A DNA stretch of 64,000 nt from an uncultured Pseudomonadales bacterium (GCA_964487665.1 CAZARR010000003.1:6998-70997), one strand, 5' to 3'; shown: positions 15,286 through 41,341, numbered from the stretch's first letter. The notes: generated from the letters alone by a model not told the origin. Program-made: numbers and translations.

Positions 15286-15301
15286 GTTATTTTATATTTA
15301 A

Positions 15302-15952: not shown

Positions 15953-15955
15953 AGA

Positions 15956-16303: not shown

Positions 16304-16312
16304 GAGATGCTG

Positions 16313-16594
16313 TTAGGTTTTGCTGATAACGCGCTTGGTAACTTTTCCATGGCCACGGAATGTGCGGGTGGGGGAAAATTCTCCCAGCCGGTGGCCGACC
16401 ATGTTTTCACTAATAAATACTTCTTTAAAAATCTTGCCATTGTGAACAAGAAAAGTTAGACCGACAAACTCCGGGGAAATTTGGGATGATCGAGCCCAAG
16501 TCTTTATCGGTTCTTTTTTGCCCGCTTTCTTGAGCCTTGCTATTTTTATAAGCAGTTTGGCGTCTACATATGGGCCTTTTTTTGTGCTGCGCAT
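16313..16594 (-). CDS. rpsS: 30S ribosomal protein S19
   Basis: KKGPYVD ... [16 protein letters not shown] signature. Confidence 0.9.
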
Positions 16595-16597
16595 GTT

Positions 16598-17362
16598 TTA
16601 CCTAGATACTTTGTTACTTTTAATGATGTATTTGTTTGAGTACTTTTTGCGTTTACGAGTTTTTTTGCCCAGAGCTTTTTTACCCCATGGGGTTTTGGGG
16701 GCTTTCATACCTATTCCGGATCTACCTTCACCCCCTCCGTGTGGATGAGAACGAGGATCTTGAGCTACTCCTCGGACGGTAGGACGAACACCCATAAGGC
16801 GATGTCGGCCGGCACTGCCAATTTTTTCGTTTTTGTGGTCGGGGTTGGTTAGAGCACCAATGGTTGCCCGGCAGTCAGGGTTGATAAAGCGGAGAACACC
16901 GGAGGGTAATTTGATAATAATTTTGTCTTCCTCTTTTGACTGAACCAGTGCGAAGTTACCTGCTGAACGCGCGAGTTGGGCGCCCTTACCAGCCTTGATT
17001 TCTACACAATGAATTGGTGTGCCAACGGGAATATTTTTCAGTTGGCAACAGTTCCCAGGGCGAATTTCGGCAGCAGGAGAAGATATCAGCCAGTCCCCTT
17101 CTTTGACCCCTTGTGGGGCGAGAATGTATGTCTTGAGACCATTTTCGTAAACTAAAAGTGCAATATCGGCAGTGCGGTTTGGATCGTATTCGATACTTGC
17201 CACTCTGGCCTTGATATCGGTTACGTTTCTTTTCCAATCAATTTGGCGAAGGAATCGTTTTTGACGTCCACCTTGTCCGCGTACCGTTATTTTACCAGAA
17301 GAGTTTCGGCCAGAGGATTTTGGGTTGATTTTGAGTAGATTTTTTGGGATCGATGTGGACAT
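16598..17362 (-). CDS. rplB: 50S ribosomal protein L2
   Basis: PHGGGEGR signature; start MSTSIP at 17362, adjacent to the rplW stop. Confidence 0.9.
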   Translation of the reverse strand: MSTSIPKNLLKINPKSSGRNSSGKITVRGQGGRQKRFLRQIDWKRNVTDIKARVASIEYDPNRTADIALLVYENGLKTYILAPQGVKEGDWLISSPAAEIRPGNCCQLKNIPVGTPIHCVEIKAGKGAQLARSAGNFALVQSKEEDKIIIKLPSGVLRFINPDCRATIGALTNPDHKNEKIGSAGRHRLMGVRPTVRGVAQDPRSHPHGGGEGRSGIGMKAPKTPWGKKALGKKTRKRKKYSNKYIIKSNKVSR

Positions 17363-26500: not shown

Positions 26501-27270
26501 ACCGCGTCGTACTCGTCCAGCTTGATGTATTCAGTTTCAGTCAGCAAAGAATTCGGGGTAATCTGACTAACTAGCTCGAGAACCCGGTTGACTATCTCAG
26601 TCGACATAGTTACCTCTGAGGCCATTTGTTCACGTAGAGCGGCAACTTTTTGTTTAGCTGACAATTTGACAGACTCGGTTTTTAAAGCCTGCTCATCTTT
26701 GTCCTTAACTGATTTTTTAAGGGCTAAGACTTCTTTTTCTCCAGCCACTTTGACGGCCTCGATTTGTTTTTCGAAGTTTAGGCGAATCTCTTCCGCTTTG
26801 GTTTCTTTAGTTGCTTCTAGACGCTTAACGGTTTCTTCTTTGACTGTTTCATCTATAGATAAAACAAGAAAACGAGAAAAATAAATTACTGAGGTTAATT
26901 TTTTTGGGACGATATCGAGTATAAGGGAGATTTTTGAAGGTGCTCCTTTGAAAAACCAGACGTGGGCAACGGGGGCAGCAAGTTCGATATGACCCATACG
27001 TTCACGGCGAACCCGACTTAGAGTGACCTCGACTCCGCATTTGTCACAAATGATGCCTCGGAAACGCACACGCTTGTATTTTCCACAATAACATTCCCAA
27101 TCTTTGGTCGGACCAAAAATCCTTTCACAAAAAAGACCATCTTTCTCGGGTTTCTGGGTACGATAATTAATCGTCTCAGGTTTGGTGACTTCTCCTCTGG
27201 ACCAACCACGAATATCGTCAGGAGAAGCTAGCTTAATTTGCAAACCGGAAAAGTCAAGTGCATTTTTCAT
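23566..27270 (-). CDS. rpoC: DNA-directed RNA polymerase subunit beta-prime
   Basis: Zinc-binding CxxC motifs, NADFDGD catalytic loop, trigger loop; 1234 aa. Confidence 0.95.
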
Positions 27271-27273
27271 ATT

Positions 27274-30200
27274 TTATGCCGCGATTGGAGTAATTACTGA
27301 TTCGTCAGGGTCAGTGGCAGGACCACTAGTAGTGGTGTCATCATCACCAACTGTCGGCGCCGGATTGGTTGGGCTAACCGGTTGAGTGGGGAGGGCAATA
27401 CCGCCTTCTGCACTATTTAGTTGGATGTCAGAGCCGACTGGGGATACGTTGAGACATAGAGAGTTTAATTCTTTGACTAAAACCTTAAAGGACTCAGGAA
27501 TCGTGGAGTCGGGTATGGGCTCGCCTTTGACGATTGCTTCAAACGCCTTTGAGCGGCCAACGACGTCGTCACTCTTGAGAGTAAGCATTTCTTGGAGAAC
27601 GTGGGCGGTCTTGTGTGCTTCTAGGGCCCAAACTTCCATTTCCCCTAAGCGTTGGCCTCCCATCTGGGCTTTGCCCCCCAAGGGTTGCTGGGTAACGATT
27701 GAGTATGGCCCAGTTGAGCGGGCATGGGCCTTGTCCTCAACCATATGGTTGAGCTTGAGAATATAAGCAGTTCCCACAGCCATGCGATTACTGAAAGCGT
27801 GTCCTGTGCGACCATCGTAAAGCTGTATTTTGCCATCAGTGGGGAGCCCCGCCTCATTCATCAAGCCGGCTATTTTGTCTTCTGAGATATGCTCAAAAAC
27901 AGGAACGGCTATGGTTTGGCCAAGCTTTTTGGCTGCCAAACCTAACTGGGCTTCTAGGAGCTGCCCCAGGTTCATACGAGCAAGAGCAGACAACGGGGAA
28001 ATCATTATGTCGATCGGGGTACCGTCCGGTAGGTAGGGCATGTCACACTGGGGAATAATCTTGCTGATGACGCCTTTGTTCCCGTGGCGACCGGCGACCT
28101 TGTCCCCGGCAGTGATTTTTCTAAGTTGTGCTACCTTGACCTTGATTATCTTGGTGACACCACTCTCTAGCTCGTCACCCTTTTCACGATCAAGTATTTG
28201 AATTTCTACGACTGTCCCTTGCTCACCATGAGGCATACGTAAGGACGTGTCGCGAACTTCTCGAGCTTTTTCACCGAAAATTGCGCGGAGAAGTCTTTCT
28301 TCGGGAGTTAGTTCGGTCTCGCCACGAGGGGCAATTTTGCCAACCAATATATCATTAGGACTGACATGGGCGCCGATCATAACAATACCTGTACTGTCTA
28401 AGTTCTTTAATTCACCTTCGGCAACATTAGGAATGTCGTTAGTGAGTTCCTCTGGTCCAAGCTTGGTATCCATAACTTCGGCAACATATTCGTCAATATG
28501 AATTGAGCTGAGAAGGTCTTCGCTGACAACACGATCAGAAATAACGATAGCGTCTTCGTAACCCAAGGCTTCGTAAGTCCCATAAGCGATGGTAAGATTT
28601 TGACCTATTGCTAACTCGCCCGCATCAGTTGCAGGTCCATCGATAATTAGATCCCCTGGTAAAATTTTCTCTCCGATCTTTACCAATGGTTTCTGTGAAT
28701 AGCAAGTACTCTGGGCAGTGCGATAAAATTTTTTGACTTGATAAGTAAGAATGTCGTTTTCGAGTGATACATAGCCACTGTTGAAGCGATCGAGGTCTGA
28801 CCTGGCAGTTTGAACGTCGTCAGGGAGAAGTTTTAGACTGACTGTGCGGGAGTCTGCGTGGACGACTGTAGCATGGTAAGGCGATTTCACCACCCAGCCC
28901 ATGGCTTCAGCAACTACGCGCTCCATGCCAGTACCGACTACAGGGGCTGCAGGTTTGAGCAGGGGTACAGCTTGGCACTGCATGTTGGTTCCCATAAGCG
29001 CGCGGGTGCCATCGTCGTGGTGAACAAAAGGAATTAAAGCAGCCGAAGTACCCACGAGCTGTTGGGGTACTGTGTCAATAAATTGAATTTTGTCGACATC
29101 AACTTCGATATATTGACCGCGGTAGCGCGCAGGGACCCATTTATCGGTAATTCGGTTGTTTTCTTGTTTCACCTCGGCATGAGTGGTGTAATATTCTTCT
29201 TCCTCGGCGGCAGTTAGATAAACCAAGTCTTGGGAAATAACACCATCCTTGACCCGAAGGTAAGGAGCTTCAAGGAAGCCATACTCGTTGACGTGGGTAT
29301 AGAGAGAAAGATAGGTAACCAGGCCAATATTTTGTCCTTCTGGTGAGCGGATTGGACAGATACGGCTATACTGGCTGGAGTTGATATCGCGCATAGAAAA
29401 ACTGGCTCTTTCGCGGGTAATTCCACCGGTGCCCATCACCGATACCCTACGGAGATTGTCTACTTCGGACAGTGGATTAATTTGGTCCAAAATTGCACTA
29501 AGGCGGTTTCTGCGGAAAAATTCGGAAATTGAGGCGATAATCGGACGGGCATTAACAAAACTACTGGGAGCGTGTAATTCATCGGGGCGGGCAAGACTCA
29601 TTTTTTCCTTGATCGATCTTTCGAGGCGGATTAGTCCCATGCGAAACGCTGTTTGACCAACAAGTTCGCCCACTCGACGCATACGGCGGTTGGCGAGGTG
29701 ATCGATATCATCGACTCTACCTTTGTTGTTTTGCAGGTTGATTAGGTAGCGGATTGTAGCAATGATATCGTCGCGATCCAATATTGTGTGGGCTTGATCA
29801 ATTGGCGTGGTTAACCCGAGTTTGGTGTTGAGTTTGTAGCGCCCGACCTTGCCTAGGTCATAGCGGCGATGGTCAAAAAACATCTGATGCATCAGGTTTT
29901 TGGCGTTCTCAATTACAGCTGGTTCCCCAGGACGAATTTTGTCATAAAACTCTAGCAAGGCTTCTTCTGTGGTTTTGCTAGTATCCCGCATGAGCGTGGT
30001 ATCAATGTAGGAATGGTTCTCGTCTGTATCACAGTCAGTAAATAGTTCTTTGATCGACTCGTCAGTAGGAAAGCCTAGGGCACGAAGGAGAGTAGTGGCT
30101 GAGATTTTGCGAAAACGGTCAATTTTGACTGAAAGATGGTCATTGCGACTGACAGTCATTTCGAGCCAAGAACCTCGCAGCGGACGAATTTCTGACGAGT

Positions 30201-30657
30201 GGAGTAAACGACCAGAGTTGGGGTCAAGCTCTGATGTGAAAAAGACTCCGGGGCTACGAACCAACTGATTGACGACGACACGCTCAACACCGTTGACAAT
30301 AAAGGTACCAGCATCAGTCATGAGAGGAATGTCACCGAGAAAAACTTCCTGCTCCTGTTCTACCTTGGTTTGTAGATTGGTCAGCTTAGCTGTAACTCGT
30401 AGAGGAGCTTCGAAATTGAGACCTTTTTCGATACATGTTTTGGGGTTAAGCTTGGGTTTGCCAATGCGGTGGTCGTAAAATTCTAGTTCAAAGATTTTGC
30501 CGGTAAAATCTTTAATGGGGTTAATTTCGTGTAAGGCTTCTTTGATGCCTTCTCTTAAAAACTCTTGGTATGATTCTATCTGATAGCGGGTAAAGTTTAG
30601 TTCGGGGGTAATTTTAAATGGTTTTCCCCAATTTTGGCGTTTGTTTACCTTTGGCAT
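27274..30657 (-). CDS. rpoB: DNA-directed RNA polymerase subunit beta
   Basis: Rifampicin-region and catalytic motifs; 1127 aa (shortened). Confidence 0.95.
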   Translation of the reverse strand: MPKVNKRQNWGKPFKITPELNFTRYQIESYQEFLREGIKEALHEINPIKDFTGKIFELEFYDHRIGKPKLNPKTCIEKGLNFEAPLRVTAKLTNLQTKVEQEQEVFLGDIPLMTDAGTFIVNGVERVVVNQLVRSPGVFFTSELDPNSGRLLHSSEIRPLRGSWLEMTVSRNDHLSVKIDRFRKISATTLLRALGFPTDESIKELFTDCDTDENHSYIDTTLMRDTSKTTEEALLEFYDKIRPGEPAVIENAKNLMHQMFFDHRRYDLGKVGRYKLNTKLGLTTPIDQAHTILDRDDIIATIRYLINLQNNKGRVDDIDHLANRRMRRVGELVGQTAFRMGLIRLERSIKEKMSLARPDELHAPSSFVNARPIIASISEFFRRNRLSAILDQINPLSEVDNLRRVSVMGTGGITRERASFSMRDINSSQYSRICPIRSPEGQNIGLVTYLSLYTHVNEYGFLEAPYLRVKDGVISQDLVYLTAAEEEEYYTTHAEVKQENNRITDKWVPARYRGQYIEVDVDKIQFIDTVPQQLVGTSAALIPFVHHDDGTRALMGTNMQCQAVPLLKPAAPVVGTGMERVVAEAMGWVVKSPYHATVVHADSRTVSLKLLPDDVQTARSDLDRFNSGYVSLENDILTYQVKKFYRTAQSTCYSQKPLVKIGEKILPGDLIIDGPATDAGELAIGQNLTIAYGTYEALGYEDAIVISDRVVSEDLLSSIHIDEYVAEVMDTKLGPEELTNDIPNVAEGELKNLDSTGIVMIGAHVSPNDILVGKIAPRGETELTPEERLLRAIFGEKAREVRDTSLRMPHGEQGTVVEIQILDREKGDELESGVTKIIKVKVAQLRKITAGDKVAGRHGNKGVISKIIPQCDMPYLPDGTPIDIMISPLSALARMNLGQLLEAQLGLAAKKLGQTIAVPVFEHISEDKIAGLMNEAGLPTDGKIQLYDGRTGHAFSNRMAVGTAYILKLNHMVEDKAHARSTGPYSIVTQQPLGGKAQMGGQRLGEMEVWALEAHKTAHVLQEMLTLKSDDVVGRSKAFEAIVKGEPIPDSTIPESFKVLVKELNSLCLNVSPVGSDIQLNSAEGGIALPTQPVSPTNPAPTVGDDDTTTSGPATDPDESVITPIAA

Positions 30658-30713
30658 TAGTTTTGTAGCAAAAAGGGACAGATTTTAATAATAATAAATT
30701 CCCTGTACAGGAA

Positions 30714-30743
30714 CACATAAAAACACTGGCTACAAAAAGCCAG
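30714..30743 (-). terminator. Rho-independent terminator downstream of mltG
   Basis: Minus-strand RNA CUGGCU-UUUUGU-AGCCAG (stem 30726-30731 / 30738-30743) followed by UGUUUUUAUG (30716-30725). Confidence 0.55.
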
Positions 30744-30801
30744 CAAGATCCACAGAGAATGAGAGGATAGCATATTTTTTAGTGATCTGTCAACGGGCTA
30801 G

Positions 30802-31797
30802 TTAGCAACTTTTTCGGAGATATGTGCAAATATTACGGTTATGCTGCTCAACAGTTTGGGCGTAATGAACAACACCTTGGTTATCGTGAAGATAGAACCA
30901 GTTACTGGTGATAGCGGGATTTTTTGCTGCGATGAGACTGTCCTTCCCGGGGTTACCTATTGGACCGGGGGGTAGGCCCTGGTTAATATAGGTATTGTAA
31001 GGTGAGATAATTTTTAGATCTGCGCTGGTAAGAGAGTTGGGCCACCAAACACATTGCCGAAAGCGGCAATGGGAGCTGGCAAGAGCAAACTGGACTGTAG
31101 CGTCAATTTGGAGAGGCCAATTGTTAGCTAAACGATTGGCAATGATTCCGGCAATTTCCTTTTTTTCGGCTAGGTTTCCTCTGGATTCGCGTTCGAGTAG
31201 GGAGGCAACAATAAGCTCTTTTTTGGTGATAGGGGCGATTTTGGATGAGGAAATAATCTGTTCGTAACGAGATAGAAGAGCGGAAATGACTTCTTCAGCT
31301 GATGTGGCATAGGAAAAGTTGTAGGTATCGGGAAACAGTTTACCTTCGAGAGTGGAAGACTTTTGGATAAACAGGTCAACGTCGAAGTTGTTCTGGGGGT
31401 TTTGCTTGTGAAACTGATCAAGGAAAAGATTGGCGACTTCCTCGTGGCGTAGGCCCTCTGGAACAACGACGCGTACTTGTTTATCTATGGCTTTAGTTAG
31501 AGAAGTAATAATCTCAGGCGTCGATAGCGATGGCGAGAGATAAACAAAACCGGCTTTGATATTTTTTCCCTGACCGGACGCGATTAGGTAGTAACGAGCA
31601 GCAGCTGAGGAGCGAATCAGATTGTTTTGGCGAAGGATGGCGATGACTTGGCGGCTACTTTGACCTTGTTTGATTTCGATCTCAACTGGAATTGTGTTGT
31701 TTTTGTCGACGGGGGAAAGGACGGAATAAACAAAGATGAAAAGCAATATCGAGGCAATTACTAAAATGGTAGAGATCGAGCCAAGGAGGCGATTCAT
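30802..31797 (-). CDS. mltG: Endolytic murein transglycosylase MltG/YceG
   Basis: N-terminal TM; YceG signatures KLFPDTYNF and GLPPGPIGNPG. Confidence 0.85.
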   Translation of the reverse strand: MNRLLGSISTILVIASILLFIFVYSVLSPVDKNNTIPVEIEIKQGQSSRQVIAILRQNNLIRSSAAARYYLIASGQGKNIKAGFVYLSPSLSTPEIITSLTKAIDKQVRVVVPEGLRHEEVANLFLDQFHKQNPQNNFDVDLFIQKSSTLEGKLFPDTYNFSYATSAEEVISALLSRYEQIISSSKIAPITKKELIVASLLERESRGNLAEKKEIAGIIANRLANNWPLQIDATVQFALASSHCRFRQCVWWPNSLTSADLKIISPYNTYINQGLPPGPIGNPGKDSLIAAKNPAITSNWFYLHDNQGVVHYAQTVEQHNRNICTYLRKSC

Positions 31798-31800
31798 AGC

Positions 31801-32016
31801 CTAGACCTCTTCGAAAAGAGCTCTTCGATAGGATTTGTTTTTGTGGTGGTGCATAAATATGCGGCCACACTTACAAGTGACTTGGTCGTGGTCTGCAACT
31901 TTAGCTTTCTGTATTTTACCTTTGGAAAGCGCGGCACCACAGCCAACGCACTGACCTCTTGAAAGCAACCAGGATTGAATGGGGGCGATAAGATTTTTTA
32001 GTACAGTTGGTTTCAT
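31801..32016 (-). CDS. Hypothetical small zinc-ribbon protein (CxxC ... CxC)
   Basis: 71 aa; CVGCGAALSKG ... VTCKCGRIF; tightly packed between ruvX and mltG. Confidence 0.5.
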   Translation of the reverse strand: MKPTVLKNLIAPIQSWLLSRGQCVGCGAALSKGKIQKAKVADHDQVTCKCGRIFMHHHKNKSYRRALFEEV

Positions 32017-32039
32017 ATTTGATTGGCGTGTTTATTCTA

Positions 32040-32435
32040 TCATTTTTTACTATCTAGGTATTCTTCGAGAATAATAGCAGCCGAATTGGCGTGGAGCGAA
32101 GATTTGTAATGGCGGGGACTGACGTTGGCCCGGGCCAATTCTGAACTTGCCTGGTGAGAGCTATTATCCTCAGAATAAAGGACAAACTTGATAGTGGGAA
32201 AGTTTGTACTCAGACTGCGATGAAGATTCTGAGAGAAGCGGACTATCGGTCCCGATCGAGGTTGCCCAATGACAACAATCTGTGGATGATACTGGGTGAT
32301 GATTGAATTAAGCGATACAACCAAATGTTTTAGAGACTTTGATTCAATAGTAGATAGGGGCAGAGCCAAAAGGTTTTGGTTGGCTATGGCGACACCAGTG
32401 TGTGAAAGGCCGGGGTCGAGGCAAAGTATCGTCAT
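32040..32435 (-). CDS. ruvX: Holliday-junction resolvase-like nuclease RuvX/YqgF
   Basis: N-terminal ILCLDPGLSHTGVAIA (YqgF RNase H-like motif); 131 aa. Confidence 0.8.
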   Translation of the reverse strand: MTILCLDPGLSHTGVAIANQNLLALPLSTIESKSLKHLVVSLNSIITQYHPQIVVIGQPRSGPIVRFSQNLHRSLSTNFPTIKFVLYSEDNSSHQASSELARANVSPRHYKSSLHANSAAIILEEYLDSKK

Positions 32436-33223
32436 ATGTTTCTGACTAGATCCGCCTCGACAATTAGGCGTTTGAGACGAGTTCCTGGCGGAACGCAGGT
32501 TATTAATTTCAATTTTTTGTGGTCGTAAATTTGTCGTAGTACCCAGGTGTCGCTTGGTTTGACTTGGTAAACTTTGGTCACTTTGTAGGTATAAGTGTTA
32601 TTGTTAAAATTTGTAAGAATAAGGTCGTCTAATTTTACGCTAGGGAGGTAAGTAAAGATGCTCATATAGTCATTCGGTTTGGTAAGCTGGGGAAGGGTCG
32701 AGTGTCCGAAAATAACTGTGTCGCCAAATCCCCCTGGGAGCGCAGTGCCAGGGAAGTGGACAAGACTTTTGCCCAGATCGTCGCCGTTGATTGTGACGAT
32801 TGCTAGATCAAGCTTGAGGCTAGGTACGCTAATGGTAAAGGTCTTGAGATCTGTGGGGGGAGGGTTGAGTTGTGAGATCGTAGTTGGTTCTGAAGGAGGA
32901 ATGTTTTTGGCGGCAAACCAGTTACTGGCCTTGGTAAAGTCGAGGTCGGAAACCACCTGAGGGCCGTTTTCGGTATCAAGTGAGGGGAATGATGACGCAT
33001 CGACGATTGGTGAAAGAAGTCCAACGCGGGCATATCGATCGGTTGTGGGTGAGTTGGATCTGTCAGTGAACTGATACTCGACGATCGGCCAAGTCACACT
33101 GGCAATAATTGCTAAGCCAAGAGCAGAAATTATTATAGGTAGTAACTTTAGATAAAGCGGGAGAATGTGTCCAGGATAAGGATTTTCTGGTGTGGCTTTT
33201 TGATATGCGTACGGTTCATACAT
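32432..33223 (-). CDS. Sortase-family transpeptidase (N-terminal TM anchor)
   Basis: Catalytic His in VIFGHSTLPQ, TLxTC-type Cys in KLITCVPPGT, conserved Arg in RLIVEADLVR. Confidence 0.8.
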   Translation of the reverse strand: MYEPYAYQKATPENPYPGHILPLYLKLLPIIISALGLAIIASVTWPIVEYQFTDRSNSPTTDRYARVGLLSPIVDASSFPSLDTENGPQVVSDLDFTKASNWFAAKNIPPSEPTTISQLNPPPTDLKTFTISVPSLKLDLAIVTINGDDLGKSLVHFPGTALPGGFGDTVIFGHSTLPQLTKPNDYMSIFTYLPSVKLDDLILTNFNNNTYTYKVTKVYQVKPSDTWVLRQIYDHKKLKLITCVPPGTRLKRLIVEADLVRNI

Positions 33224-35333
33224 TGGTTTGGTTAGAAACTATTATGATTTTTATCCTAGCGGGGTTTCTGGGGAGATATTGATTGAGAATTGGTAGACTG
33301 GGGGTAATTTTTACAACGATTGACGAAACTCCGCTGGTGTTGTCGAATAGGGAAGGAATTTTGCTTACCGATTTCCCGGCGAGAACCGAGGGATATTGGG
33401 CAACATTAATATCCGGAACTAATTGCCCTTGGACGGCGGCTGAGGCTGTGTAGCTGTCATTGGTGATCTTTTTTATATCGTTTAATACGATAGTAGTTGA
33501 GGTCGGATCAAGTTTTTTTTGACTGTATTTGCCAGACACAATTTGTTTGGTTAAGTTGTTTATCAAATTCTCTGGGGAATAAACCAAGACTGGTACAGAA
33601 GCGGATAAGTTGAGAGAAAGTTCGTCTGACGCCTCGGATATTTTGGCAGAAAACTTTTTGGTGGTAATCTTGATATCTCCCGAGACACTTTTTGACTCGT
33701 TGTCATTTGAGGTAGATTCGCTATTTACTTTGGTGCTGACCTCTGCGAGCGCTTGTTCTTCGAGAGACTTGATGTCTCTATCAGAAACAGCTTTGACTGT
33801 TTTTGAAGATCCGCCGGAGAAATCCTTGTCGCAAATGGCAATTAGTGTGCTTTTTGGATATTTATCGACAGAAAATTGGGTGTCTTTGGGGAGGTTGCTC
33901 TCTGCGCCAATTTTGAGAGCGCTTACGGTAATTGCTGAACTACCAGGAGTGATAACAAAGGGTGGTTCAGGCTGGGAGGAGCTTGAGGCAATAAAAACTG
34001 AGTCGTCTAGGCTGAAGTCCTGGCCATTGCTGGCAGTAACTTTTGTTCCTGCTTTAAGTGCTATCAATTGACTTGAACGGTTGTAGATTGTGATCGTGCC
34101 CTTGGCTTTGTCGCCAACTACGGTTTCTCCCGTGGTGCTTATCTTTTTTTCCACATTTACGGTTAGAGTTTCTTCGCGAAGAATAGCTGAGCCGGCCTGA
34201 TCTTTGGAGAGATTAACAGTGACTGTTTGTTCGAGACTTTCTGGTTTGGTCTTGATGGTAATTTCTGCCCGAACAAGAGATTGGTAGAAAAGGAATAGAA
34301 TAGCAGGAATTATTGGCACGCCAATAAGGAAAAAATATTTAAGTGAAAGTTGAGGAAGACGAAGCCTAGGAAGAGACAGGCTAGGAATAAGCCTATGTTT
34401 AAGTGATGTTTGGGGTTCGGGTTGGTGAATAACAAGAGGTGTTGGAGGCAAAGGAGGTGTGGAATCGATTTCCGGCGATTTATTTTCCGATTCGACTTCG
34501 AACCCAAGGTCTTTGAGGGTTGCCTCGTTTACCGGAGTGACATCAGAAGAGGCGATTGTGCCATCTTCTGTTGTTGGGGTAGTGACAACATCTAGCCCAA
34601 GAGATTTGGCAGCTTCAGTGCCACCACATAGGGCAATAGCCTTGATGGAAAAATCACTATCAAGAACTTCAACCTTGGGAAGATGTAAAAAGTTGAGTTT
34701 TTCTAACCATGGATAAGAGATAATCTGTTGGCGTTCATTGTCTAAGTTGGAACCATTTGTCAAGATGAAACGGACAGGGAGGCGGTCGGCTCCAATGCGA
34801 ACCAGGGCCTCTTCTACGTCCTTGGCCAGGTCATCGGAACGACCCACCTCTTCTTGTCTTTCCACCTGTCCAACCCTAATTAGCGATACTACGGCTCGGG
34901 TGGGGTAAATTTCAATAAGAATAGCAGTGGGAGGAATACCATCCTGTTTTTTGAGCTGCTGGACAATAGCTTCGGTGATCGTTACCAAGCCAATGGGCTT
35001 GAGGTTAAGATCGTTGATAATCTTTTTGATCTGTGAACTGTAGTCAGTGGAAATTTTGTCACCATCGAGCCAAGACTCGGGTAGTCCAAGGATAACCCGG
35101 TCTGGTTCGCTGCCTAAGGTCTTGACTGCGTTGGTAAGTGAAATGTCTACACCATTGACCAAGGACTCGCTATCTTCCCAGGCTTCGTATGAACCGACAG
35201 CGATAATTTCCGGCTGGTTGTCTACAACTTTCCAAGAAGCTGTTTTTACTAAAGAGTCATGAATTTCTAGAGCTAAGAAAAACTCCTCGGTCTGAGTGGG
35301 GCTGTCTTTTTTAAATAGGCGTTTTATCTCCAT
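33216..35333 (-). CDS. Hypothetical bitopic membrane protein. N-terminal cytoplasmic domain has weak actin-like (FtsA/PilM/GspL-cyto-like) resemblance; single TM; Ser/Thr-rich beta-rich extracytoplasmic C-terminal domain
   Basis: 705 aa. Degenerate phosphate-1-like LALEIHDSLVK. TM YFFLIGVPIIPAILFLFYQSLV at about residue 335. No LPXTG. The domain assignment is tentative. Confidence 0.35.
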   Translation of the reverse strand: MEIKRLFKKDSPTQTEEFFLALEIHDSLVKTASWKVVDNQPEIIAVGSYEAWEDSESLVNGVDISLTNAVKTLGSEPDRVILGLPESWLDGDKISTDYSSQIKKIINDLNLKPIGLVTITEAIVQQLKKQDGIPPTAILIEIYPTRAVVSLIRVGQVERQEEVGRSDDLAKDVEEALVRIGADRLPVRFILTNGSNLDNERQQIISYPWLEKLNFLHLPKVEVLDSDFSIKAIALCGGTEAAKSLGLDVVTTPTTEDGTIASSDVTPVNEATLKDLGFEVESENKSPEIDSTPPLPPTPLVIHQPEPQTSLKHRLIPSLSLPRLRLPQLSLKYFFLIGVPIIPAILFLFYQSLVRAEITIKTKPESLEQTVTVNLSKDQAGSAILREETLTVNVEKKISTTGETVVGDKAKGTITIYNRSSQLIALKAGTKVTASNGQDFSLDDSVFIASSSSQPEPPFVITPGSSAITVSALKIGAESNLPKDTQFSVDKYPKSTLIAICDKDFSGGSSKTVKAVSDRDIKSLEEQALAEVSTKVNSESTSNDNESKSVSGDIKITTKKFSAKISEASDELSLNLSASVPVLVYSPENLINNLTKQIVSGKYSQKKLDPTSTTIVLNDIKKITNDSYTASAAVQGQLVPDINVAQYPSVLAGKSVSKIPSLFDNTSGVSSIVVKITPSLPILNQYLPRNPARIKIIIVSNQTNV

Positions 35334-37203
35334 CTGGGGCAGTTAATTGCAAGTAGATACGCCGAGTGTTGGCACCGAGTGACTCTTGACGCACCACCTT
35401 AATAGTACCAATTTCTTTGGTGCGCGTCACATGTGGTCCCCCACAAAGTTCTTTGGAATAACTTCCAATTGAAAAAACCGTAACTAAATTGGGATATTTT
35501 TGTTTGAAAAAGGCAAGAGCCCCTGAAGCGATTGCTTCATCAAAAGACATGGTAGTTGAAGAAACGGGGAGATTTTCGGTGATTTTTTGATTGATGGTGT
35601 TTTGAATTGAATCAATTTGATCTGGAGTGAGGGGCTTGTCGTAAGAGAAGTCGAAACGAAGACGATCGGCGGTAATATTGGACCCAGCTTGGTGGACAGT
35701 ATCCCCCAATATGTCACGGAGGGCTTGGTGGAGAAGGTGGGTGGCTGTGTGATACTTGGTGGTGACCTGAGAGTGATCAGCTAGTCCGCCCTTGAACATA
35801 CCTGCTGAAGCCGATCTTGAAGTGTTTTGATGTTTGACCATTTCGTTTTCAAAGTCGATTTTTTTTGGCGGTATATAACCTGGTTTGCCCGAGATTATTT
35901 CTTGGGTGACCTCGAAAGGGAAACCAAAGTTTTGGAATAGATTGAAAGCAAATTGGCCATTAATTTTATTGGCAGGGGTTTTTTCTATTAGTCGATAACC
36001 AGTGGTGAATACCTTGGCGAATTTCTCCATTTCCGTAGTAATGGTCGCCAAAGCGCTTGGGTAAACCCCAGATAGATAATTGGGGTATATGTCACAAACG
36101 ACCTGGATCAATTTGGTTAGGTTGTTGGCAAAGTTAGCTTCACCGGTCAGTTGGTAGACTTTGACGGCAGAGCGGCGCAAGAGTCGACGAAGAACATAAC
36201 CCTGTTGCTTGTTGCTTGGTTCGAGCCCTGCTGCGATCATAAACACTGAAGCTTTGAGGTGATCGGCAATAATTCGCATAATGGTCTGATCTCTTCCCTG
36301 GTATTTTTTACCCGTAAGTTGGGAGATCTGATTGATTATAGGCAAGAATAAATCGGTGAGAAAAATATCAGGATTGTTGTTGTGGGCGGCAAGTATTCTT
36401 TCTAGGCCTCCACCGAAGTCAACGTTTTTGTGAGGCAAGGCGGTGCAGGAGCCATCTGAGTTTTTTTGATATTCCATGAATACTGAGTTGCCTATTTCGA
36501 GAAAGTGTCCACAGTCACAATTGGGGTGACATTTTTGGCCGAATTTCGTATCGTGAGGTATATCAGTAAATTCGAAAAATATTTCGGAGCTGGGACCTCC
36601 TGGTTCTCCTGTGGGCATGGTGGTTGGAGTATGACCATTTCTAGCCCACCAGTTTTTTTTGGAATCGTAGTAAAAGATACGACCACCTGCCAACCCTACC
36701 TTGGCTGCGTTTTCGAGAGTATCGAGCGAGACAATTTCGGCATTTACGTTGTGCTGTTTAAAAAGTTTTTGCCACAGTTTTGGAGATAATTCATCTCTTG
36801 AAATATTGTTTTGAGGGTCGCCATTGAAAACGGTGACATATAGTTTTTCTGGATTTAGACCGACAATGTTGACTAGAAATTCAAAGATCCAAGTCAGCTG
36901 TTCTTCTTTAAAGTAGTCTCCCAGGGACCAATTACCAAGCATTTCAAATAGGGTGGTGTGGCGATTGTCGCCGATCTCGTTTAGATCTTCGGCTCGAAAA
37001 CAAACTTGCGAGTCGACTAACCGGACTCCCAACGGGTGAGTCTGTCCCAATAGATATGGCATCATGGGCTGCATACCAGAACCAGTAAAAAGGGTGGTTG
37101 GGTCCCCTTCGGGTAGTAAACTACTACTGGGGATGGGACGATGTTTTCTTGTTGAGTCGCAAAAAAAATCAAGATACTTTTGGCGCAATTCCTGTCCGGT
37201 CAT
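35311..37203 (-). CDS. alaS: Alanyl-tRNA synthetase, truncated form lacking the C-Ala domain
   Basis: Class II catalytic core (FTGSGMQP, FRAEDLNEIGDNRHTTLFEMLGNWS); editing domain HTATHLLHQALRDILG and CGGPHV; 630 aa. Confidence 0.9.
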   Translation of the reverse strand: MTGQELRQKYLDFFCDSTRKHRPIPSSSLLPEGDPTTLFTGSGMQPMMPYLLGQTHPLGVRLVDSQVCFRAEDLNEIGDNRHTTLFEMLGNWSLGDYFKEEQLTWIFEFLVNIVGLNPEKLYVTVFNGDPQNNISRDELSPKLWQKLFKQHNVNAEIVSLDTLENAAKVGLAGGRIFYYDSKKNWWARNGHTPTTMPTGEPGGPSSEIFFEFTDIPHDTKFGQKCHPNCDCGHFLEIGNSVFMEYQKNSDGSCTALPHKNVDFGGGLERILAAHNNNPDIFLTDLFLPIINQISQLTGKKYQGRDQTIMRIIADHLKASVFMIAAGLEPSNKQQGYVLRRLLRRSAVKVYQLTGEANFANNLTKLIQVVCDIYPNYLSGVYPSALATITTEMEKFAKVFTTGYRLIEKTPANKINGQFAFNLFQNFGFPFEVTQEIISGKPGYIPPKKIDFENEMVKHQNTSRSASAGMFKGGLADHSQVTTKYHTATHLLHQALRDILGDTVHQAGSNITADRLRFDFSYDKPLTPDQIDSIQNTINQKITENLPVSSTTMSFDEAIASGALAFFKQKYPNLVTVFSIGSYSKELCGGPHVTRTKEIGTIKVVRQESLGANTRRIYLQLTAPDGDKTPI

Positions 37204-37229
37204 ATGGCTAATTATAGCCCAAGAGCGCG

Positions 37230-37514
37230 CTAGTTTTCGAAATATTGAGGTTCTGGAAGCGGGGGGCGATAACCGGAGGGGGAAGATGGGCTATCTTGAA
37301 CAAGGGTTCCAACACGGGAAAGGGTTTCCTTGGTAGCATTCTTAATTTTGTCCGTTATCGGTGACTGGGAGAGTTCATCGAGAAAAGTTTTGGTGATACG
37401 TCGCCCTTCCTTGGTGCCCAACATCAGAGCCCCGATGGCTCCGAAGGTCAGGCCAAGCATAAAAACAGAAAAGGAATGGTCAATGGTGATCTCCTTAGAA
37501 TTATTCCCGGTCAT
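37230..37514 (-). CDS. Hypothetical small membrane protein (YtxH-like)
   Basis: 94 aa; single TM FSVFMLGLTFGAIGALMLG. Confidence 0.45.
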   Translation of the reverse strand: MTGNNSKEITIDHSFSVFMLGLTFGAIGALMLGTKEGRRITKTFLDELSQSPITDKIKNATKETLSRVGTLVQDSPSSPSGYRPPLPEPQYFEN

Positions 37515-37770
37515 GATTCCTGTTTAAGACGCTGGTGATAATCTCGATAATTTTCGAGGATTGACGTACCCCCTCTACCAAACCGGCGATTCCGGTAACT
37601 GGTGCAGCAAATTTTTGAATTGTCGCCTCGGCAGAATTGAGAACCTCATCAAAGCGAGCCAGCGATTTTTGCATTTGTTTAAGAATAATTACTACCTGGA
37701 TGCCGATTACCACAGCGACGAGGGTAAGAATGGTAATGGCAGAAGTAGAGATGATTTCGGGAATTGTCAT
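37501..37770 (-). CDS. Hypothetical small membrane protein (DUF948-like)
   Basis: 89 aa; N-terminal TM then a helical region. Confidence 0.45.
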   Translation of the reverse strand: MTIPEIISTSAITILTLVAVVIGIQVVIILKQMQKSLARFDEVLNSAEATIQKFAAPVTGIAGLVEGVRQSSKIIEIITSVLNRNHDRE

Positions 37771-37799
37771 GTGTGAGTTTAATTAAGCCAGTAGAGAGA

Positions 37800-38567
37800 C
37801 TAATTGTCAAATGATAGCTTGCGGCAGAGTAAAGCCATGAACAAAGGGATCTCGTGACGAGCGATATTTTCTGATTTGGCACGCGTACCCCTGCTAACAC
37901 GTCCGGAGGTCCATTCTTCGATGGTTTCCACGATAAATCCCGCTTGGCGGAGCTGCTCAGAATAGGTGGACAGAGCCAGGTGATATGACCAAGTAATCGG
38001 TGATTTTTTCTGGCCGGGATGGGTAAGTATGGGAATTTTAAGTGGTTGCAAATATCGATTTACAAAACGGTACTGAGTTTTGGTGTCGGGATTTTGACCC
38101 CACCCACTCTGGCGAGGAATTCGGAAACAAGGGTGGTTAATGACAACCAGGAATTTACCGGTAGTGGCCAGTAACCGAGAGGCATTTGCAAAAACGGCTT
38201 GTGATTGGTCGATGTTCTGTAGGGCCAATATGATTGCAGCGTGTGAAAATATCTGGTTGAGATTGAGAGGTTTGGTTACATCTCCGATATGGTAGGAATG
38301 ATGAGGTGACCGGTCTAGCTTTTTGGCTGTGGAAATTAACGATGGAGACAAGTCTATTCCAAGATATGTGTTTTGAGGGTTTATCGATCGGCCGAGAACT
38401 CCTTGGCCGCAAGCTAGGTCAAGAATTTTAGACGAGGAATCTATTCTAAGTAAACTAAGAGACTGAGGAATGACAACGTGTTGATGATAATAATGCCCCC
38501 CACGGGAAACGATTTGGTTGTACCACACAGAACTCGATTCCCAAGATGTAACTGAGTCGTTTTTCAT
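37800..38567 (-). CDS. Class I SAM-dependent methyltransferase
   Basis: Motif I ILDLACGQGVLG; Rossmann-fold pattern. Confidence 0.7.
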   Translation of the reverse strand: MKNDSVTSWESSSVWYNQIVSRGGHYYHQHVVIPQSLSLLRIDSSSKILDLACGQGVLGRSINPQNTYLGIDLSPSLISTAKKLDRSPHHSYHIGDVTKPLNLNQIFSHAAIILALQNIDQSQAVFANASRLLATTGKFLVVINHPCFRIPRQSGWGQNPDTKTQYRFVNRYLQPLKIPILTHPGQKKSPITWSYHLALSTYSEQLRQAGFIVETIEEWTSGRVSRGTRAKSENIARHEIPLFMALLCRKLSFDN

Positions 38568-39181
38568 TGGCTAATTATGACAATTGGAATTTTTTGGGAA
38601 TTGGATTGATGGTAACGGTTCGTCGAGACCACAACAATTTCTTTTATCAGAGGATCAAAGATAATCGTTTCTTTGAAATAACCGTGTGAATCTGGTTTGA
38701 CGGTGTTTGTCGAGTTAATTGTTATGATCGATCCGGGATCTGTTTTTCCCTCAATGGTTATATCCGGCCCGGTTACTGCTTGTGGTTCTGGGCGGACAAT
38801 TTCCAGTTTGGGTGGGGTGATGACGGCTCGGAATTGAAAAATTAGGTAACTCACGAAAACTAAAACCCCCACAAAAATGTAAATCATTGGTCCGGGTCTT
38901 TTGGCGAGCCCGAAACGATTCCGGAGAGTGAGATGCTGGGAGGGTGTATCTGTTTTAAAGTCGCGGCGATAAAGTGCAATTAGTGGTTCGGGTGGGGCAC
39001 CCAGCGCCCTAGCGATAATTTTTATGTAGCCTTTGGCTGTGGTATTGGGAATACGAGCAAATTGGTTTGATTCCAAAAGGATAAGTTTTTGGGAATCAAT
39101 CTTGGTTGTCTGTGACAGTTGATCAATAGATATGTTTTGAGACAGACGGGTTTTTTTTATTTCCTCCCCTACAGTCATCAT
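38564..39181 (-). CDS. RodZ-like membrane protein with N-terminal XRE-type HTH
   Basis: HTH region IDQLSQTTKIDSQKLILLESNQFARIP...GYIKIIARALG; TM IYIFVGVLVFVSYLIF; C-terminal extracytoplasmic domain. Confidence 0.6.
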   Translation of the reverse strand: MMTVGEEIKKTRLSQNISIDQLSQTTKIDSQKLILLESNQFARIPNTTAKGYIKIIARALGAPPEPLIALYRRDFKTDTPSQHLTLRNRFGLAKRPGPMIYIFVGVLVFVSYLIFQFRAVITPPKLEIVRPEPQAVTGPDITIEGKTDPGSIITINSTNTVKPDSHGYFKETIIFDPLIKEIVVVSTNRYHQSNSQKIPIVIISQ

Positions 39182-39185
39182 GGGG

Positions 39186-41321
39186 TCAGTTGCGGTAGCT
39201 GGCTAAAAATTCCTCAGCGTTTTTGATAAGGACATCGCGAGGCTTACTACCCTCGGGAGCAGATATTACTCCCGCCTGTTCTAATTGGTCAAGAATTCGT
39301 GCGGCACGGGCGTAACCAATAGAAAGACGGCGTTGTAAAAGGGAGGCGCTGGCTTTGCCGTACTCAACACAAACGCGAACGGATTGTTGAAATTGTTCGT
39401 CTACGTCTTCGATATTCGGATTACTAGAAATTGATTTTTTGCTTTGGTAGCTAGTAGTGACAGCATCCTGATATTGTGGTGCTACCCCTTTGGAGCGTAG
39501 ATAAGAAGTAAGACCAGTAATTTCGGCATCATCAACATAGGCACCTTGGATCCGATGAGGTTTGGCCTGATCCGGAGGAATATAGAGCATGTCACCTCGA
39601 CCAAGGAGTTTTTCAGCCCCAGGGGTGTCGATGATAACGCGAGAATCAACCATCGAAGTGACGTTGAAAGCGATACGGCAAGGAATATTGGCTTTGATTA
39701 AACCGGTAAGGATGTCGACCGAGGGCCTCTGGGTGGCTACTACCAAGTGGATGCCAACCGCACGAGCCATTTGTGCCAGACGAGTAACAGCTTCTTCGAC
39801 CTCGCTTACTGAATAAAGCATGATGTCGGCTAACTCGTCGATCAAAAAGATAATGTAGGGCATAGCCTGAAAACCAGACAGGCTGTTGTATCCTGCGATA
39901 TTGCGAACGCCGACCTCGGCAAATAATTTATAGCGATTTTCCATTTCGGCTAAAGCCCACTTAAGGGCTGAGATTACTTTGTCTGGTTCGACAATTACAG
40001 GGGTAAGCAAATGGGGGATGCCGTTGTACCCCGTTAGTTCAACCCGCTTGGGGTCGACCATGATAAATTTAACCTCGTCGGGAGACGCGCGAAAAAGAAT
40101 GGATGCGATGAAGGCATTAAGGCAAACCGACTTCCCCGATCCGGTTGACCCAGCAATTAAAACGTGGGGCATCTTTGATATTTCGGCTACTGCGGCATCA
40201 CCAGAGACGTCAATACCGAGAGCGACAGCTGTTTTAGAGGTGTTTTTTTGCATTATTGGCGAGGTTAGGATTTGCTTGAGAGAGACATATTCCAAAGAAC
40301 GGTTGGGGATTTCTATACCCACCAAAGAACGCCCGGCGATGGGTGCCTCGATACGAATTTGCCCTTGAGGAGCGGCTAGGGCCAAAGCGAGATCGGACTG
40401 GAGAGTGACAATTTTGCTAACCTTGGTACCTAGGGCAATTTCGAGAGCATATTGGGTAACAGCTGGTCCGCAATTTACCTCGATTACTTTGGCCTCGATA
40501 CCAAAGGAATCGAGAGTGCGCTCAATTACAGCGGCGTTGTGTTTGATGTCTCCTCGATCTGCCTTGCCACGTTTTTCGTCAGACAGGATACTTAGAGGGG
40601 GAAGTTCCCACACAGTAGAACTTCCTGTCGGCTGATTGCTAACAACCGTACCGACTGTGGGGGTTTCGGGTGGACGGTTTGCATTAACAACAAATGGGGT
40701 GGGTGGTTTTTTTTCTAATTTTTGAGAAGAGGTACTTTCGGTCTCTAATTCTTGGGGAATCCCTTTGACTTTTATTTCTTTGGAACCCAAGTGGCTAACT
40801 TGATCCAACCGGTTTCTGGTCACTTTGGTTTGGAGCAGTTGAGTAATCTTGTTGAAAATATTTCTAAAAAATATCGAAAGATCCTGGAGAGAGGTCTCAA
40901 AAAAAATAATAATACCGATAGCAAGTCCGGTTAAATAAAATAAATACGAACCGGCGGGATTGATAAGTGAAGCAATGGAAAGAAAAAGTTGGTGGCCAAT
41001 TTCACCCGCCTTGGTTAGGCCCAAGGAGGAAATTAACACAATTAGGTAGCCAAGAAATGTGCTGAAGCGTGCGAGGGCCCATTTAACACGGCTAAGTATC
41101 AGACCTGAAGAAATAAACAAAAAGGGTACTAGGATAAACGTCCAGCCTAGATAGCGACTACCCAAATTGAAAACTGTCTGCAGTATTACCCCCTGGCGCG
41201 AGAAAGAAACACTTACCAGACAACCCAGACTGACAATGAGGATTCCAATAATGGATAGTACGGTTTCCCTTTTAAGAGACACCGAAGTTTTCTTGTGACG
41301 TCTCTGCCTTCTTTTGGGCAT
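39186..41321 (-). CDS. ftsK: DNA translocase FtsK/SpoIIIE
   Basis: N-terminal TMs; motor domain GSTGSGKS Walker A; C-terminal gamma winged-helix domain. Confidence 0.9.
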   Translation of the reverse strand: MPKRRQRRHKKTSVSLKRETVLSIIGILIVSLGCLVSVSFSRQGVILQTVFNLGSRYLGWTFILVPFLFISSGLILSRVKWALARFSTFLGYLIVLISSLGLTKAGEIGHQLFLSIASLINPAGSYLFYLTGLAIGIIIFFETSLQDLSIFFRNIFNKITQLLQTKVTRNRLDQVSHLGSKEIKVKGIPQELETESTSSQKLEKKPPTPFVVNANRPPETPTVGTVVSNQPTGSSTVWELPPLSILSDEKRGKADRGDIKHNAAVIERTLDSFGIEAKVIEVNCGPAVTQYALEIALGTKVSKIVTLQSDLALALAAPQGQIRIEAPIAGRSLVGIEIPNRSLEYVSLKQILTSPIMQKNTSKTAVALGIDVSGDAAVAEISKMPHVLIAGSTGSGKSVCLNAFIASILFRASPDEVKFIMVDPKRVELTGYNGIPHLLTPVIVEPDKVISALKWALAEMENRYKLFAEVGVRNIAGYNSLSGFQAMPYIIFLIDELADIMLYSVSEVEEAVTRLAQMARAVGIHLVVATQRPSVDILTGLIKANIPCRIAFNVTSMVDSRVIIDTPGAEKLLGRGDMLYIPPDQAKPHRIQGAYVDDAEITGLTSYLRSKGVAPQYQDAVTTSYQSKKSISSNPNIEDVDEQFQQSVRVCVEYGKASASLLQRRLSIGYARAARILDQLEQAGVISAPEGSKPRDVLIKNAEEFLASYRN

Positions 41322-41341
41322 GCTATTAGTATAACCCTGAC

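Follow-up and report, generated by a model that had tools for sequence, protein, structure and literature searches.

What brings a sortase and a 705 amino acid protein known only as 'hypothetical' into the midst of a housekeeping gene cluster, and do the two proteins work together? The genes in question lie on the minus strand of the 64,000-nucleotide stretch of DNA that was analysed (the window), and the open reading frames given in the initial annotation for alaS, the 705 amino acid protein (referred to here as X705), the sortase, ruvX and mltG proved to be correct in position and strand. The alaS gene (35311..37203), encoding a short 630 amino acid AlaRS, lies upstream of X705 (33216..35333). 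Then follow, on the same strand, the sortase gene (32432..33223), ruvX (32040..32435), an ORF encoding a 71 amino acid cysteine-rich small Zn-ribbon protein (31801..32016), mltG (YceG/MltG; 30802..31797) and, after mltG, a terminator-like hairpin (30745-30724). The alaS, ruvX and mltG assignments are each supported by Pfam and NCBIfam. The overlaps described earlier between alaS and X705 (23 nt, 35311-35333) and between X705 and the sortase gene (8 nt, 33216-33223) are real and the sortase gene overlaps ruvX by 4 nt, with the four genes from alaS to ruvX forming an end-to-end overlapping chain.

The X705–sortase pair was originally viewed as an insertion into a conserved alaS–ruvX–mltG block, a view that is not borne out by synteny comparison. 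All 86 related loci, a set that includes six named Microgenomates lineages (Collier-, Woese-, Chisholm-, Shapiro-, Beckwith- and Amesbacteria), display the order ftsK–rodZ-like–alaS–X705–sortase–(ruvX)–mltG–rpoB, and because the position of the pair is fixed in 86/86 loci, it is to be seen as an ancestral feature of the lineage rather than the result of a recent local insertion. The GC content of the X705 locus is the same as that of its flanks. The sortase gene comes directly after X705 in every one of the 83 loci whose sequence extends beyond X705; measured from the stop codon of X705, the closest potential start codon of the sortase lies at −4 to +17 nt in 75 out of 80 loci. The breaks in synteny that are seen fall between the sortase gene and ruvX, between ruvX and mltG or between mltG and rpoB, with none separating X705 from the sortase. 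The junction of alaS and X705 is similarly contiguous (82/83 loci). As alaS is functionally unrelated and yet is joined to X705 as tightly as X705 is to the sortase, adjacency alone does not prove shared function in a streamlined genome such as this.

X705 is a real gene: the initial search recovered 159 full-length homologues, and an exhaustive profile search expanded the family to at least 3,240 cluster representatives at 50% identity (E ≤ 1e-30). No description of X705 was found in the literature. The initial annotation had allowed that the pair might turn out to be present at this locus across all relatives under a known annotation; it is indeed present in all relatives examined, but 'hypothetical' is the label in every source that gives the protein a name. 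The X705 family is unannotated and conserved across the Microgenomates, a large uncultured CPR group whose envelope and host-contact machinery is essentially unknown, with X705 itself being found in every sampled member of the group at one fixed core locus. The AF2 model of the protein (mean pLDDT 87) comprises an N-terminal domain, a linker, a transmembrane helix and a β-rich C-terminal domain, in agreement with the bitopic N-in/C-out topology proposed previously. The architecture of X705 is new but draws on known folds, a cytoskeleton-type one on the cytoplasmic side of the membrane being combined with a module of the phage-baseplate type on the outer side, and the protein is without exception encoded together with the sortase that is near-universal in the lineage. 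Whatever its function, these assignments give thousands of proteins labelled 'hypothetical' a domain annotation.

The N-terminal domain (residues 18-244; 34602..35282) had been suspected of having an actin-like fold, and here Foldseek and the AF2 model agree on a generic ASKHA fold, PilM being among the best structural matches of the model. This is the most conserved portion of X705, with a mean pairwise identity of 55% (compared with 29–38% for the ectodomain and 23% for the linker). Of its 227 residues, 213 align to the actin-like core only and this, together with a secondary-structure map, indicates that X705 is without subdomains 1C and 2B. The phosphate-1 motif, correctly described at the outset as degenerate, has histidine in place of glycine across the family (consensus E-I-H-E-S-L-I-K, compared with the DxGxxxxK of FtsA and PilM), whilst phosphate-2 has become E-I-Y-P-S/T (consensus E-I-Y-P-S-K) in place of DxGGG, leaving the adenosine GG (residues 237-238) as the sole nucleotide motif kept in the family. 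Because both glycine phosphate loops have been lost family-wide, X705 is probably not an ATPase, and its ASKHA domain is probably a pseudo-ATPase that does not bind ATP. Searches of X705 for PilM (PF11104) and GspL (PF05134) produced no Pfam match at E ≤ 0.1; there was no Pfam match to FtsA/SHS2_FtsA either, and none of the three was matched in NCBIfam. Comparison of the family profile with E. coli FtsA and with the window's own DnaK by hhalign was not significant (probabilities of 0.6% and 0.1%, respectively), the short alignments covering phosphate-1 and phosphate-2 and being used for motif placement only. A PDB sequence search with the same profile returned chance-level matches only (E ≥ 0.1), diffocin TRI-2 among them.

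The ASKHA domain is joined to the membrane by a disordered P/E/S-rich cytoplasmic linker (residues 245-330; 34344..34601), defined by its composition and by pLDDT values, which fall below 50 at residues 255-268 and 281-321 of the AF2 model. The linker varies in length from 54 to 148 amino acids across the family and contains a short conserved motif, L-x-x-[LIF]-G-F-x-[VLI]-[ED] (the GF motif; residues 273-281, 34491..34517), that was delineated by column counts, G277 being present in 70 and F278 in all 71 of 71 sequences. The single transmembrane helix (residues 331-353; 34275..34343) corresponds to a helix in the AF2 model. The hydrophobic stretch is preceded by the sequence KHRLIPSLSLPRLRLPQLSLK, and the N-in/C-out orientation follows from the basic residues on the N-terminal side of the helix.

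This arrangement brings to mind FtsA, in which an actin-fold domain is connected by a long flexible linker to a membrane anchor, as well as ZipA, the linker of which is also P/E/S-rich. X705 could on this basis be a membrane anchor for the divisome or elongasome, an FtsA/ZipA-like tether with a transmembrane helix replacing the amphipathic helix, that acts independently of the sortase, the adjacency of the two genes being a case of frozen gene order. That FtsK, a RodZ-like HTH_25 protein and MltG are encoded by members of the same conserved block as X705 would fit with such a role, and the tightness of the alaS–X705 junction illustrates that adjacency can be non-functional. In FtsA, however, subdomains 1C and 2B recruit late divisome proteins and bind the C-terminal peptide of FtsZ, and X705 possesses neither subdomain, nor does it have the glycine phosphate loops of FtsA, a Pfam match to FtsA or a significant hhalign match to it. 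In addition, where FtsA has an amphipathic helix, X705 has a true transmembrane helix followed by a conserved ectodomain of 350 amino acids, for which a simple tether offers no explanation. On balance, we regard a sortase-independent anchor as unlikely.

Beyond the membrane, the ectodomain includes a β-barrel of ~100 residues (about residues 400-510; 33804..34136) of the type seen in Baseplate_J proteins and GlxA, with matches to Baseplate_J and to baseplate-wedge proteins being obtained by profile as well as by structure. The window's X705 scores 17.6 bits against Baseplate_J (PF04865), short of the gathering cutoff of 21.1 bits, whereas relatives exceed this cutoff with scores of 32.8, 24.9 and 22.5 bits; the match is limited to profile positions ~20-110 of 255. 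The C-terminal α/β subdomain (residues 543-705; 33219..33707) is also extracytoplasmic and has no structural neighbour in PDB. Within it, P681 and P688 are invariant and P678 is at least 90% conserved. Further conserved residues of X705 are G402, G407, G412, N480 and the GGSSR stretch at 507-511. The protein ends ...LPRNPARIKIIIVSNQTNV, with neither a sorting signal nor a hydrophobic helix, confirming the earlier statement that X705 lacks LPXTG.

Could X705 be the remnant of a phage or tailocin baseplate, or a domesticated piece of one, related to the Baseplate J wedge protein? The profile and structure matches speak for such an origin, but the barrel (PF04865, PF21110) is the one module that X705 has in common with Baseplate J, gp6, Mu gp47 and TssF-type wedge proteins and with GlxA: the rest of the wedge is missing, there is no contractile context, and the barrel of X705 is located outside the cytoplasmic membrane, behind a transmembrane helix. 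Neither tail genes nor other phage genes are present in the window, no relatives of X705 were found in 2.9 million viral contigs, there is no PHROG match to the window's X705, and both the fixed position of the gene among core genes in 86 genomes and its flank-like GC content are at odds with a baseplate remnant, which we consider extremely improbable. An ancient recruitment of the domain is conceivable. The broader idea of X705 as a mobile or prophage element is effectively refuted by the lack of viral relatives and of a PHROG match, and was dropped along with a possible role in defence, for which no PADLOC match was seen.

Another way of viewing the barrel is suggested by GlxA, an enzyme that is anchored in the membrane and takes part in depositing glycan. 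X705 might be a transmembrane sensor or surface-interaction protein with no tie to the sortase, its ectodomain binding a ligand of the wall, the S-layer or a host, with its pseudo-ATPase domain acting as a relay or an anchor of the signal. The combination of a bitopic topology and a ligand-binding-type β-barrel, also seen in GlxA, would suit such a protein, and sequence change is faster in the ectodomain than on the cytoplasmic side, as expected of an outward-facing binding surface. Against this, X705 has no recognisable signalling output domain, and a gene that is strictly single-copy, fixed within a housekeeping operon and universal in the lineage points to a core structural function more than to adaptation, making a sensor role improbable.

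The gene adjacent to X705 encodes a membrane-anchored protein of 263 amino acids whose identification as a sortase is upheld by above-cutoff matches to Pfam PF04203 (E 7.5e-21; 74.6 bits, cutoff 26.6) and NCBIfam TIGR01076 (55.7 bits against 39.35). The protein has an N-terminal transmembrane segment at approximately residues 20-48 and a catalytic domain at residues 131-260 in which, across 81 orthologues, conservation reaches 90% or more for each of the three residues previously described as intact, the histidine H174 (FGHS), the cysteine C243 (LITC) and the arginine R252. Judged by these sequence features, the sortase looks functional. It is left unclassified here because none of the class-specific NCBIfam models (classes A–F) reaches its cutoff, the best being class C with 64.6 bits against 160 and classes D, E and F scoring lower. 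The closest solved sequences belong to classes C and D (8t28 at E 8.9e-12), and the His-Cys-Arg triad, the TLxTC-like LITC, the N-terminal anchor and the fold family are all shared with Gram-positive class C/D enzymes. In contrast to those enzymes, this sortase carries an additional pre-catalytic motif (D95..W102-F103; D..NWF) that is conserved in its orthologues, and is encoded in a housekeeping operon rather than beside pilin or substrate genes.

The search for sortase substrates identified two candidates with LPxxG/VPExG-type tails, both encoded on the plus strand in a separate operon located ~27 kb from X705 that also includes pilN (61150-61713), pilO (61710-62360), each recognised by Pfam, and an ORF for a 98 amino acid transmembrane protein. 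Pfam matches to Pur_ac_phosph_N and Big_13 were also obtained in this operon. The first candidate, P0121, begins at 62650 and is cut by the end of the window; the full protein is 467 amino acids long and has the tail ...LPTVG followed by a transmembrane helix and basic residues. In its family, 54 of 64 proteins have [VTLI]-P-x-x-G and then a hydrophobic helix, with most also having basic residues at the C-terminus. The second is a 974 amino acid protein encoded further downstream, with the tail LPEAG and a transmembrane helix. Judging from these tails, the two proteins are likely substrates of the sortase. The P-x-x-G, the transmembrane helix and the usually basic C-terminus are features in common with substrates of class C/D sortases, the predicted signal here being [V/T/L]P-E-x-G as opposed to the canonical LPXTG, and this sequence is a candidate sorting signal for CPR surface proteins more widely.

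The pilN–pilO operon, which is conserved in L087, L088 and L090, contains no pilM gene, and its PilN retains an IDLLP-type N-terminus. These features raise the question of whether X705 serves this orphan PilN–PilO pair as an assembly platform of the T4P/T2SS type, either as a GspL analogue or as a PilM–PilN fusion, particularly given that the operon carries sortase-type substrates. X705 shares with GspL, PilM–PilN and BfpC-type platforms a cytoplasmic actin-like domain, a single transmembrane helix and an extracytoplasmic domain, as well as having a peptide motif in its linker, and the actin-like domain of GspL is nucleotide-free. To this extent the initial annotation was right to describe its topology as like that of GspL or a PilM–PilN fusion. 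The likeness goes no further, as X705 has no PilM, PilN or GspL profile match and no 2B or 1C subdomain, the latter of which helps form the groove for the PilN peptide in PilM. The ectodomain, composed of a Baseplate_J/GlxA-type barrel and an orphan subdomain, does not resemble the ferredoxin-like domains of PilN, PilO or GspM, and a pilus platform consequently survives for topology only. X705 is next to pilus genes in none of the 86 loci, its neighbours being alaS and the sortase, and a related Microgenomates genome is reported to have a canonical PilM in its T4P locus (PMC7143001). Taken together, these results make a role for X705 in pilus assembly quite improbable.

The explanation that we favour, tentatively and at somewhat less than an even chance, is that X705 is a transmembrane scaffold that works with the sortase, the two forming a conserved two-gene envelope module of the Microgenomates. 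X705 would be non-enzymatic, its ectodomain serving, on the outer side of the membrane, to dock or position the sortase itself or its intermediates with substrates, whilst the pseudo-ATPase domain and the GF motif would engage a partner in the cytoplasm that is itself conserved, a component of the divisome or elongasome being a plausible candidate. The outcome would be the anchoring of [V/L/T]P-x-x-G-tailed proteins at sites of new wall synthesis. In favour of a scaffold are the X705–sortase junction, unbroken in the loci compared, the envelope-related products FtsK, RodZ-like protein and MltG of the surrounding block, the strong conservation of the cytoplasmic domain and GF motif, and the conserved triad and candidate substrates of the sortase. 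Should X705 and the sortase cooperate in this way, the pair would be the first example in which a sortase has its own transmembrane partner of a cytoskeleton-like kind, and would offer a handle on surface-protein placement in the Microgenomates. Counting against a scaffold is that housekeeping sortases elsewhere, to our knowledge, need no such partner. A more elaborate proposal, to which we would give little credence, joins X705, the sortase, the pilM-less PilN–PilO operon and its [V/L/T]P-x-x-G wall proteins into one undescribed envelope-spanning, Microgenomates-specific apparatus, such as a wall-anchored conduit or attachment structure, in which the pseudo-actin domain and GF peptide would couple to the cytoplasm and the baseplate-wedge-type barrel would oligomerise on the outer membrane face.

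Rate covariation gives at most a weak hint of a tie between X705 and the sortase. In a mirror-tree analysis of 54 genomes, the catalytic domain of the sortase and the ecto-barrel of X705 showed a small residual covariation (partial correlation 0.31), with the comparison within X705 itself, between the N-terminal part and the ecto-barrel, giving 0.18. In the same analysis, mltG covaries equally well with X705 and with the sortase.

The 705 amino acid protein X705 is encoded on the reverse strand at 33216-35333, between alaS (35311-37203, −), which specifies a 630 amino acid AlaRS, and the gene for a 263 amino acid sortase (32432-33223, −), with ruvX (32040-32435, −) and mltG (30802-31797, −; YceG/MltG) following; each of these neighbours is identified by both Pfam and NCBIfam. 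The initial annotation described this layout correctly, including the overlaps at either end of X705: adjacent ORFs overlap end to end by 23 nt (alaS/X705), 8 nt (X705/sortase) and 4 nt (sortase/ruvX). The GC content of the X705 region is that of its flanks. Directly 5′ of alaS is a promoter-like site (37240-37211), and mltG is followed by a hairpin resembling a terminator (30745-30724); both are consensus matches only. The ruvX–mltG gap is occupied by a 71 amino acid Cys-rich ORF (31801-32016, −) with zinc-ribbon-like CxxC...CxC spacing, and two related loci (L001, L002) have a predicted 67 amino acid gene at this position. The AlaRS is of the short NF002436 type (profile length 595) and matches the TIGR00344 bacterial alaS model at positions 1-431 of 847 only.

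X705 belongs to a large family. An initial search recovered at least 159 full-length homologues (31-48% identity), the few named ones belonging to Collierbacteria and Curtissbacteria and every source name seen being 'hypothetical protein'. When 1.84 billion cluster representatives were searched exhaustively with a profile, 3,240 matched at E ≤ 1e-30, the total rising to 9,368 at E ≤ 1e-10 and to 11,705 at E ≤ 1e-3; the best 150 are all 670-822 amino acids long, nearly all matching end to end and a few in two stretches. Scanning GTDB with one genome per species identified relatives in 165 species, from which 80 loci were kept, spanning Collier-, Woese-, Chisholm-, Shapiro-, Beckwith- and Amesbacteria among others.

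When the window's proteins were compared by tblastn with all 86 related loci, the order was, wherever the contig reaches, ftsK, HTH_25 (RodZ-like), small TM ORFs, alaS, X705, sortase, (ruvX), mltG, rpoB, placing X705 in the same block as the genes for FtsK, a RodZ-like protein and MltG. The sortase directly follows X705 in 83 of 83 loci, and in 75 of 80 the distance between the X705 stop and the nearest possible sortase start is −4 to +17 nt. Insertions (gaps over 400 nt) occur between sortase and ruvX (8/46), ruvX and mltG (12/40) and mltG and rpoB (18/57); none was found at the alaS–X705 or X705–sortase junctions, where the few large values are partial HSPs. Because the 86 loci share this order as far as their contigs reach, the X705–sortase pair is an ancestral, fixed feature of the lineage and not a recent insertion between alaS and ruvX, as had been proposed. 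What does resemble a lineage-specific insertion in this block is a gene for a class I SAM methyltransferase (37800-38567, −), which separates the HTH_25 gene from the small TM ORFs and for which tblastn found no counterpart in the 86 loci. Those small ORFs, single-TM proteins of 94 and 89 amino acids (37230-37770, −) preceding alaS, have tblastn counterparts in many related loci and no Pfam family assignment.

An AlphaFold2 model of X705 built from 71 homologues (mean pLDDT 87) has an ordered N-terminal domain (residues 18-244), a disordered linker (approximately 255-321), a helix at the hydrophobic segment 331-353 and an ordered beta-rich ectodomain (355-700). Basic residues precede the hydrophobic helix, indicating an N-in/C-out orientation and bearing out the single-TM topology first suggested. 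The N-terminal domain structurally matches the FtsA core and also EutJ, ParM and MreB; Foldseek gave a concordant picture, ranking the small ASKHA protein EutJ first. The alignment to the FtsA core covers 213 of 227 residues, so the modelled domain comprises only the RNase-H-like halves 1A and 2A. The actin-like fold guessed from sequence is thus upheld, the modelled domain being a core-only ASKHA fold lacking subdomains 1C and 2B, through which FtsA and PilM engage their partners. The phosphate-1 motif, already recognised as degenerate, is A-x-E-I-H-E-S-L-I-K across the family and phosphate-2 is L-L-E-I-Y-P-S-K, both replacing the canonical loops, whilst the adenosine-motif GG (237-238) is invariant. 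Since the phosphate loops are replaced family-wide, the domain is probably not an ATPase. Despite this degenerate site it is the most conserved region of X705 (mean pairwise identity 55%, as against 23% for the linker, 24% for the TM helix and 29-38% for the ectodomain). The linker spans 54-148 amino acids, has a high content of P, E and S and holds a single short motif, L-x-x-[LIF]-G-F-x-[VLI]-[ED], with F278 invariant (71/71) and G277 present in 70 of 71; both the cytoplasmic domain and this one peptide are strongly constrained.

X705 itself matches no Pfam or NCBIfam family above threshold, its only Pfam match being a sub-threshold one to Baseplate_J (residues 408-508). That family is matched above threshold by the X705 relatives P0111 (32.8 bits), P0114 (24.9) and P0084 (22.5), a further relative (P0118) matches the GlxA barrel profile, a PHROG baseplate wedge subunit matches P0111 (E 1.7e-9) and Foldseek aligns the ectodomain barrel with Mu gp47 (25% identity, 109 columns). 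On these profile and model comparisons, the ectodomain is judged to carry a beta-barrel of around 100 residues homologous to the Baseplate J wedge/GlxA barrel. X705 has this one module in common with the wedge proteins and GlxA and nothing else, and no relative was found in 2.9 million viral contigs; that X705 is a phage remnant is extremely improbable.

The sortase matches PF04203 (E 7.5e-21) and passes the TIGR01076 cutoff. His174, Cys243 and Arg252, noted as intact at the outset, are each at least 90% conserved in 81 orthologues; an N-terminal TM segment and, ahead of the catalytic region, a D95..W102-F103 motif are conserved to the same degree. No NCBIfam model for classes A-F reaches its cutoff, and among solved sequences those of class C and D sortases come closest; judged by sequence, this is a genuine sortase that belongs to no established class and is predicted to be active. 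X705 has no sorting signal and, as supposed, would not itself be a substrate. Candidate substrates are encoded elsewhere. P0121 (467 amino acids with FN3-like and Ig-like domains), whose ORF starts at 62650 (+) and is truncated by the window end at 64000, has a C-terminal tail of LPTVG followed by a hydrophobic helix and basic residues. Such a [V/T/L/I]-P-x-x-G plus hydrophobic helix tail, most commonly VPEPG, TPETG or VPESG, is present in 54 of 64 homologues, usually with basic C-terminal residues, and a 974 amino acid protein encoded two genes downstream ends in LPEAG and a hydrophobic helix. These tails resemble a variant of the LPXTG signal that would serve CPR sortases.

P0121 lies in a conserved operon with rpsT, pilN, pilO and a small TM ORF; the pilN–pilO pair and 98 amino acid TM ORF (61150-62653, +) directly follow rpsT. 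The operon, with its putatively sorted protein, is kept in related loci L087, L088 and L090; in L090 the two proteins with sorting-type tails are encoded at 10001-11404 and 13743-16667. The proteins with such tails in this pilN–pilO operon, some 27 kb away, are therefore plausible substrates of the sortase. The window's operon lacks pilM, and its PilN keeps an IDLLP-type N-terminus, a PilM-binding motif in other systems. The initial annotation had likened X705 to GspL or a PilM–PilN fusion. The topology and a structural similarity to PilM stand, but nothing else does: the ectodomain folds contradict a pilus platform, subdomain 1C is missing, the gene context (alaS, sortase) is against it and a canonical PilM is reported in a Microgenomates genome (PMC7143001). 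We regard this role as decidedly improbable.

More generally, X705 is topologically like GspL or a PilM–PilN fusion and like FtsA in core fold, but differs from all of these in the features tested (profile membership, subdomains, nucleotide loops, partner-type ectodomain and gene context). A core-only pseudo-ASKHA domain, TM helix and Baseplate_J-type barrel locked to a sortase in an alaS–ruvX–mltG block was not found in the libraries and papers searched, and the literature searched yielded nothing on X705; the arrangement is judged to be a new combination of familiar kinds of parts.

Our tentative explanation is that X705 serves as a transmembrane scaffold with no enzymatic activity, its ectodomain acting together with the co-translated sortase. 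Inside the cell, a conserved partner would be bound by the pseudo-actin domain and the GF motif, and this might link the attachment of [V/L/T]PxxG proteins to the wall with sites of envelope growth. The operonic pairing with the sortase is strict, but the alaS–X705 junction is equally tight and therefore adjacency in a compact genome is suggestive rather than decisive; rate-covariation between X705 and the sortase gives a weak signal. That X705 is instead a divisome anchor of the FtsA/ZipA kind, with no relation to the sortase, is unlikely, and that it is a sensor or surface-binding protein is improbable. Whichever applies, the family is large, universal in the lineage, unannotated and testable, with a function that we infer.

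Adjoining murJ is the gene for a 586 amino acid protein (59095-60855, +) with a TM/signal segment at the N-terminus and a dockerin-type module at the C-terminus (PF00404, E 8.6e-5). Many public MAG records with a locus of this Microgenomates type (L007, L009, L010, L026, L057, L066 and others) bear titles such as 'uncultured Pseudomonadales', 'Gammaproteobacteria', 'Spirochaetia', 'Bathyarchaeia' or 'Nevskiaceae', which look like taxonomic errors in the source records. The + strand GC skew is strongly and persistently positive over 26000-41500 (maximum +0.33), with a climbing cumulative curve, and nearly all genes over 80-54247 lie on the − strand; both agree with the unusual strand G/C disparity reported for genomes of the order UBA1400 (Collier-, Beckwithbacteria, Ch65) (PMC7143001).
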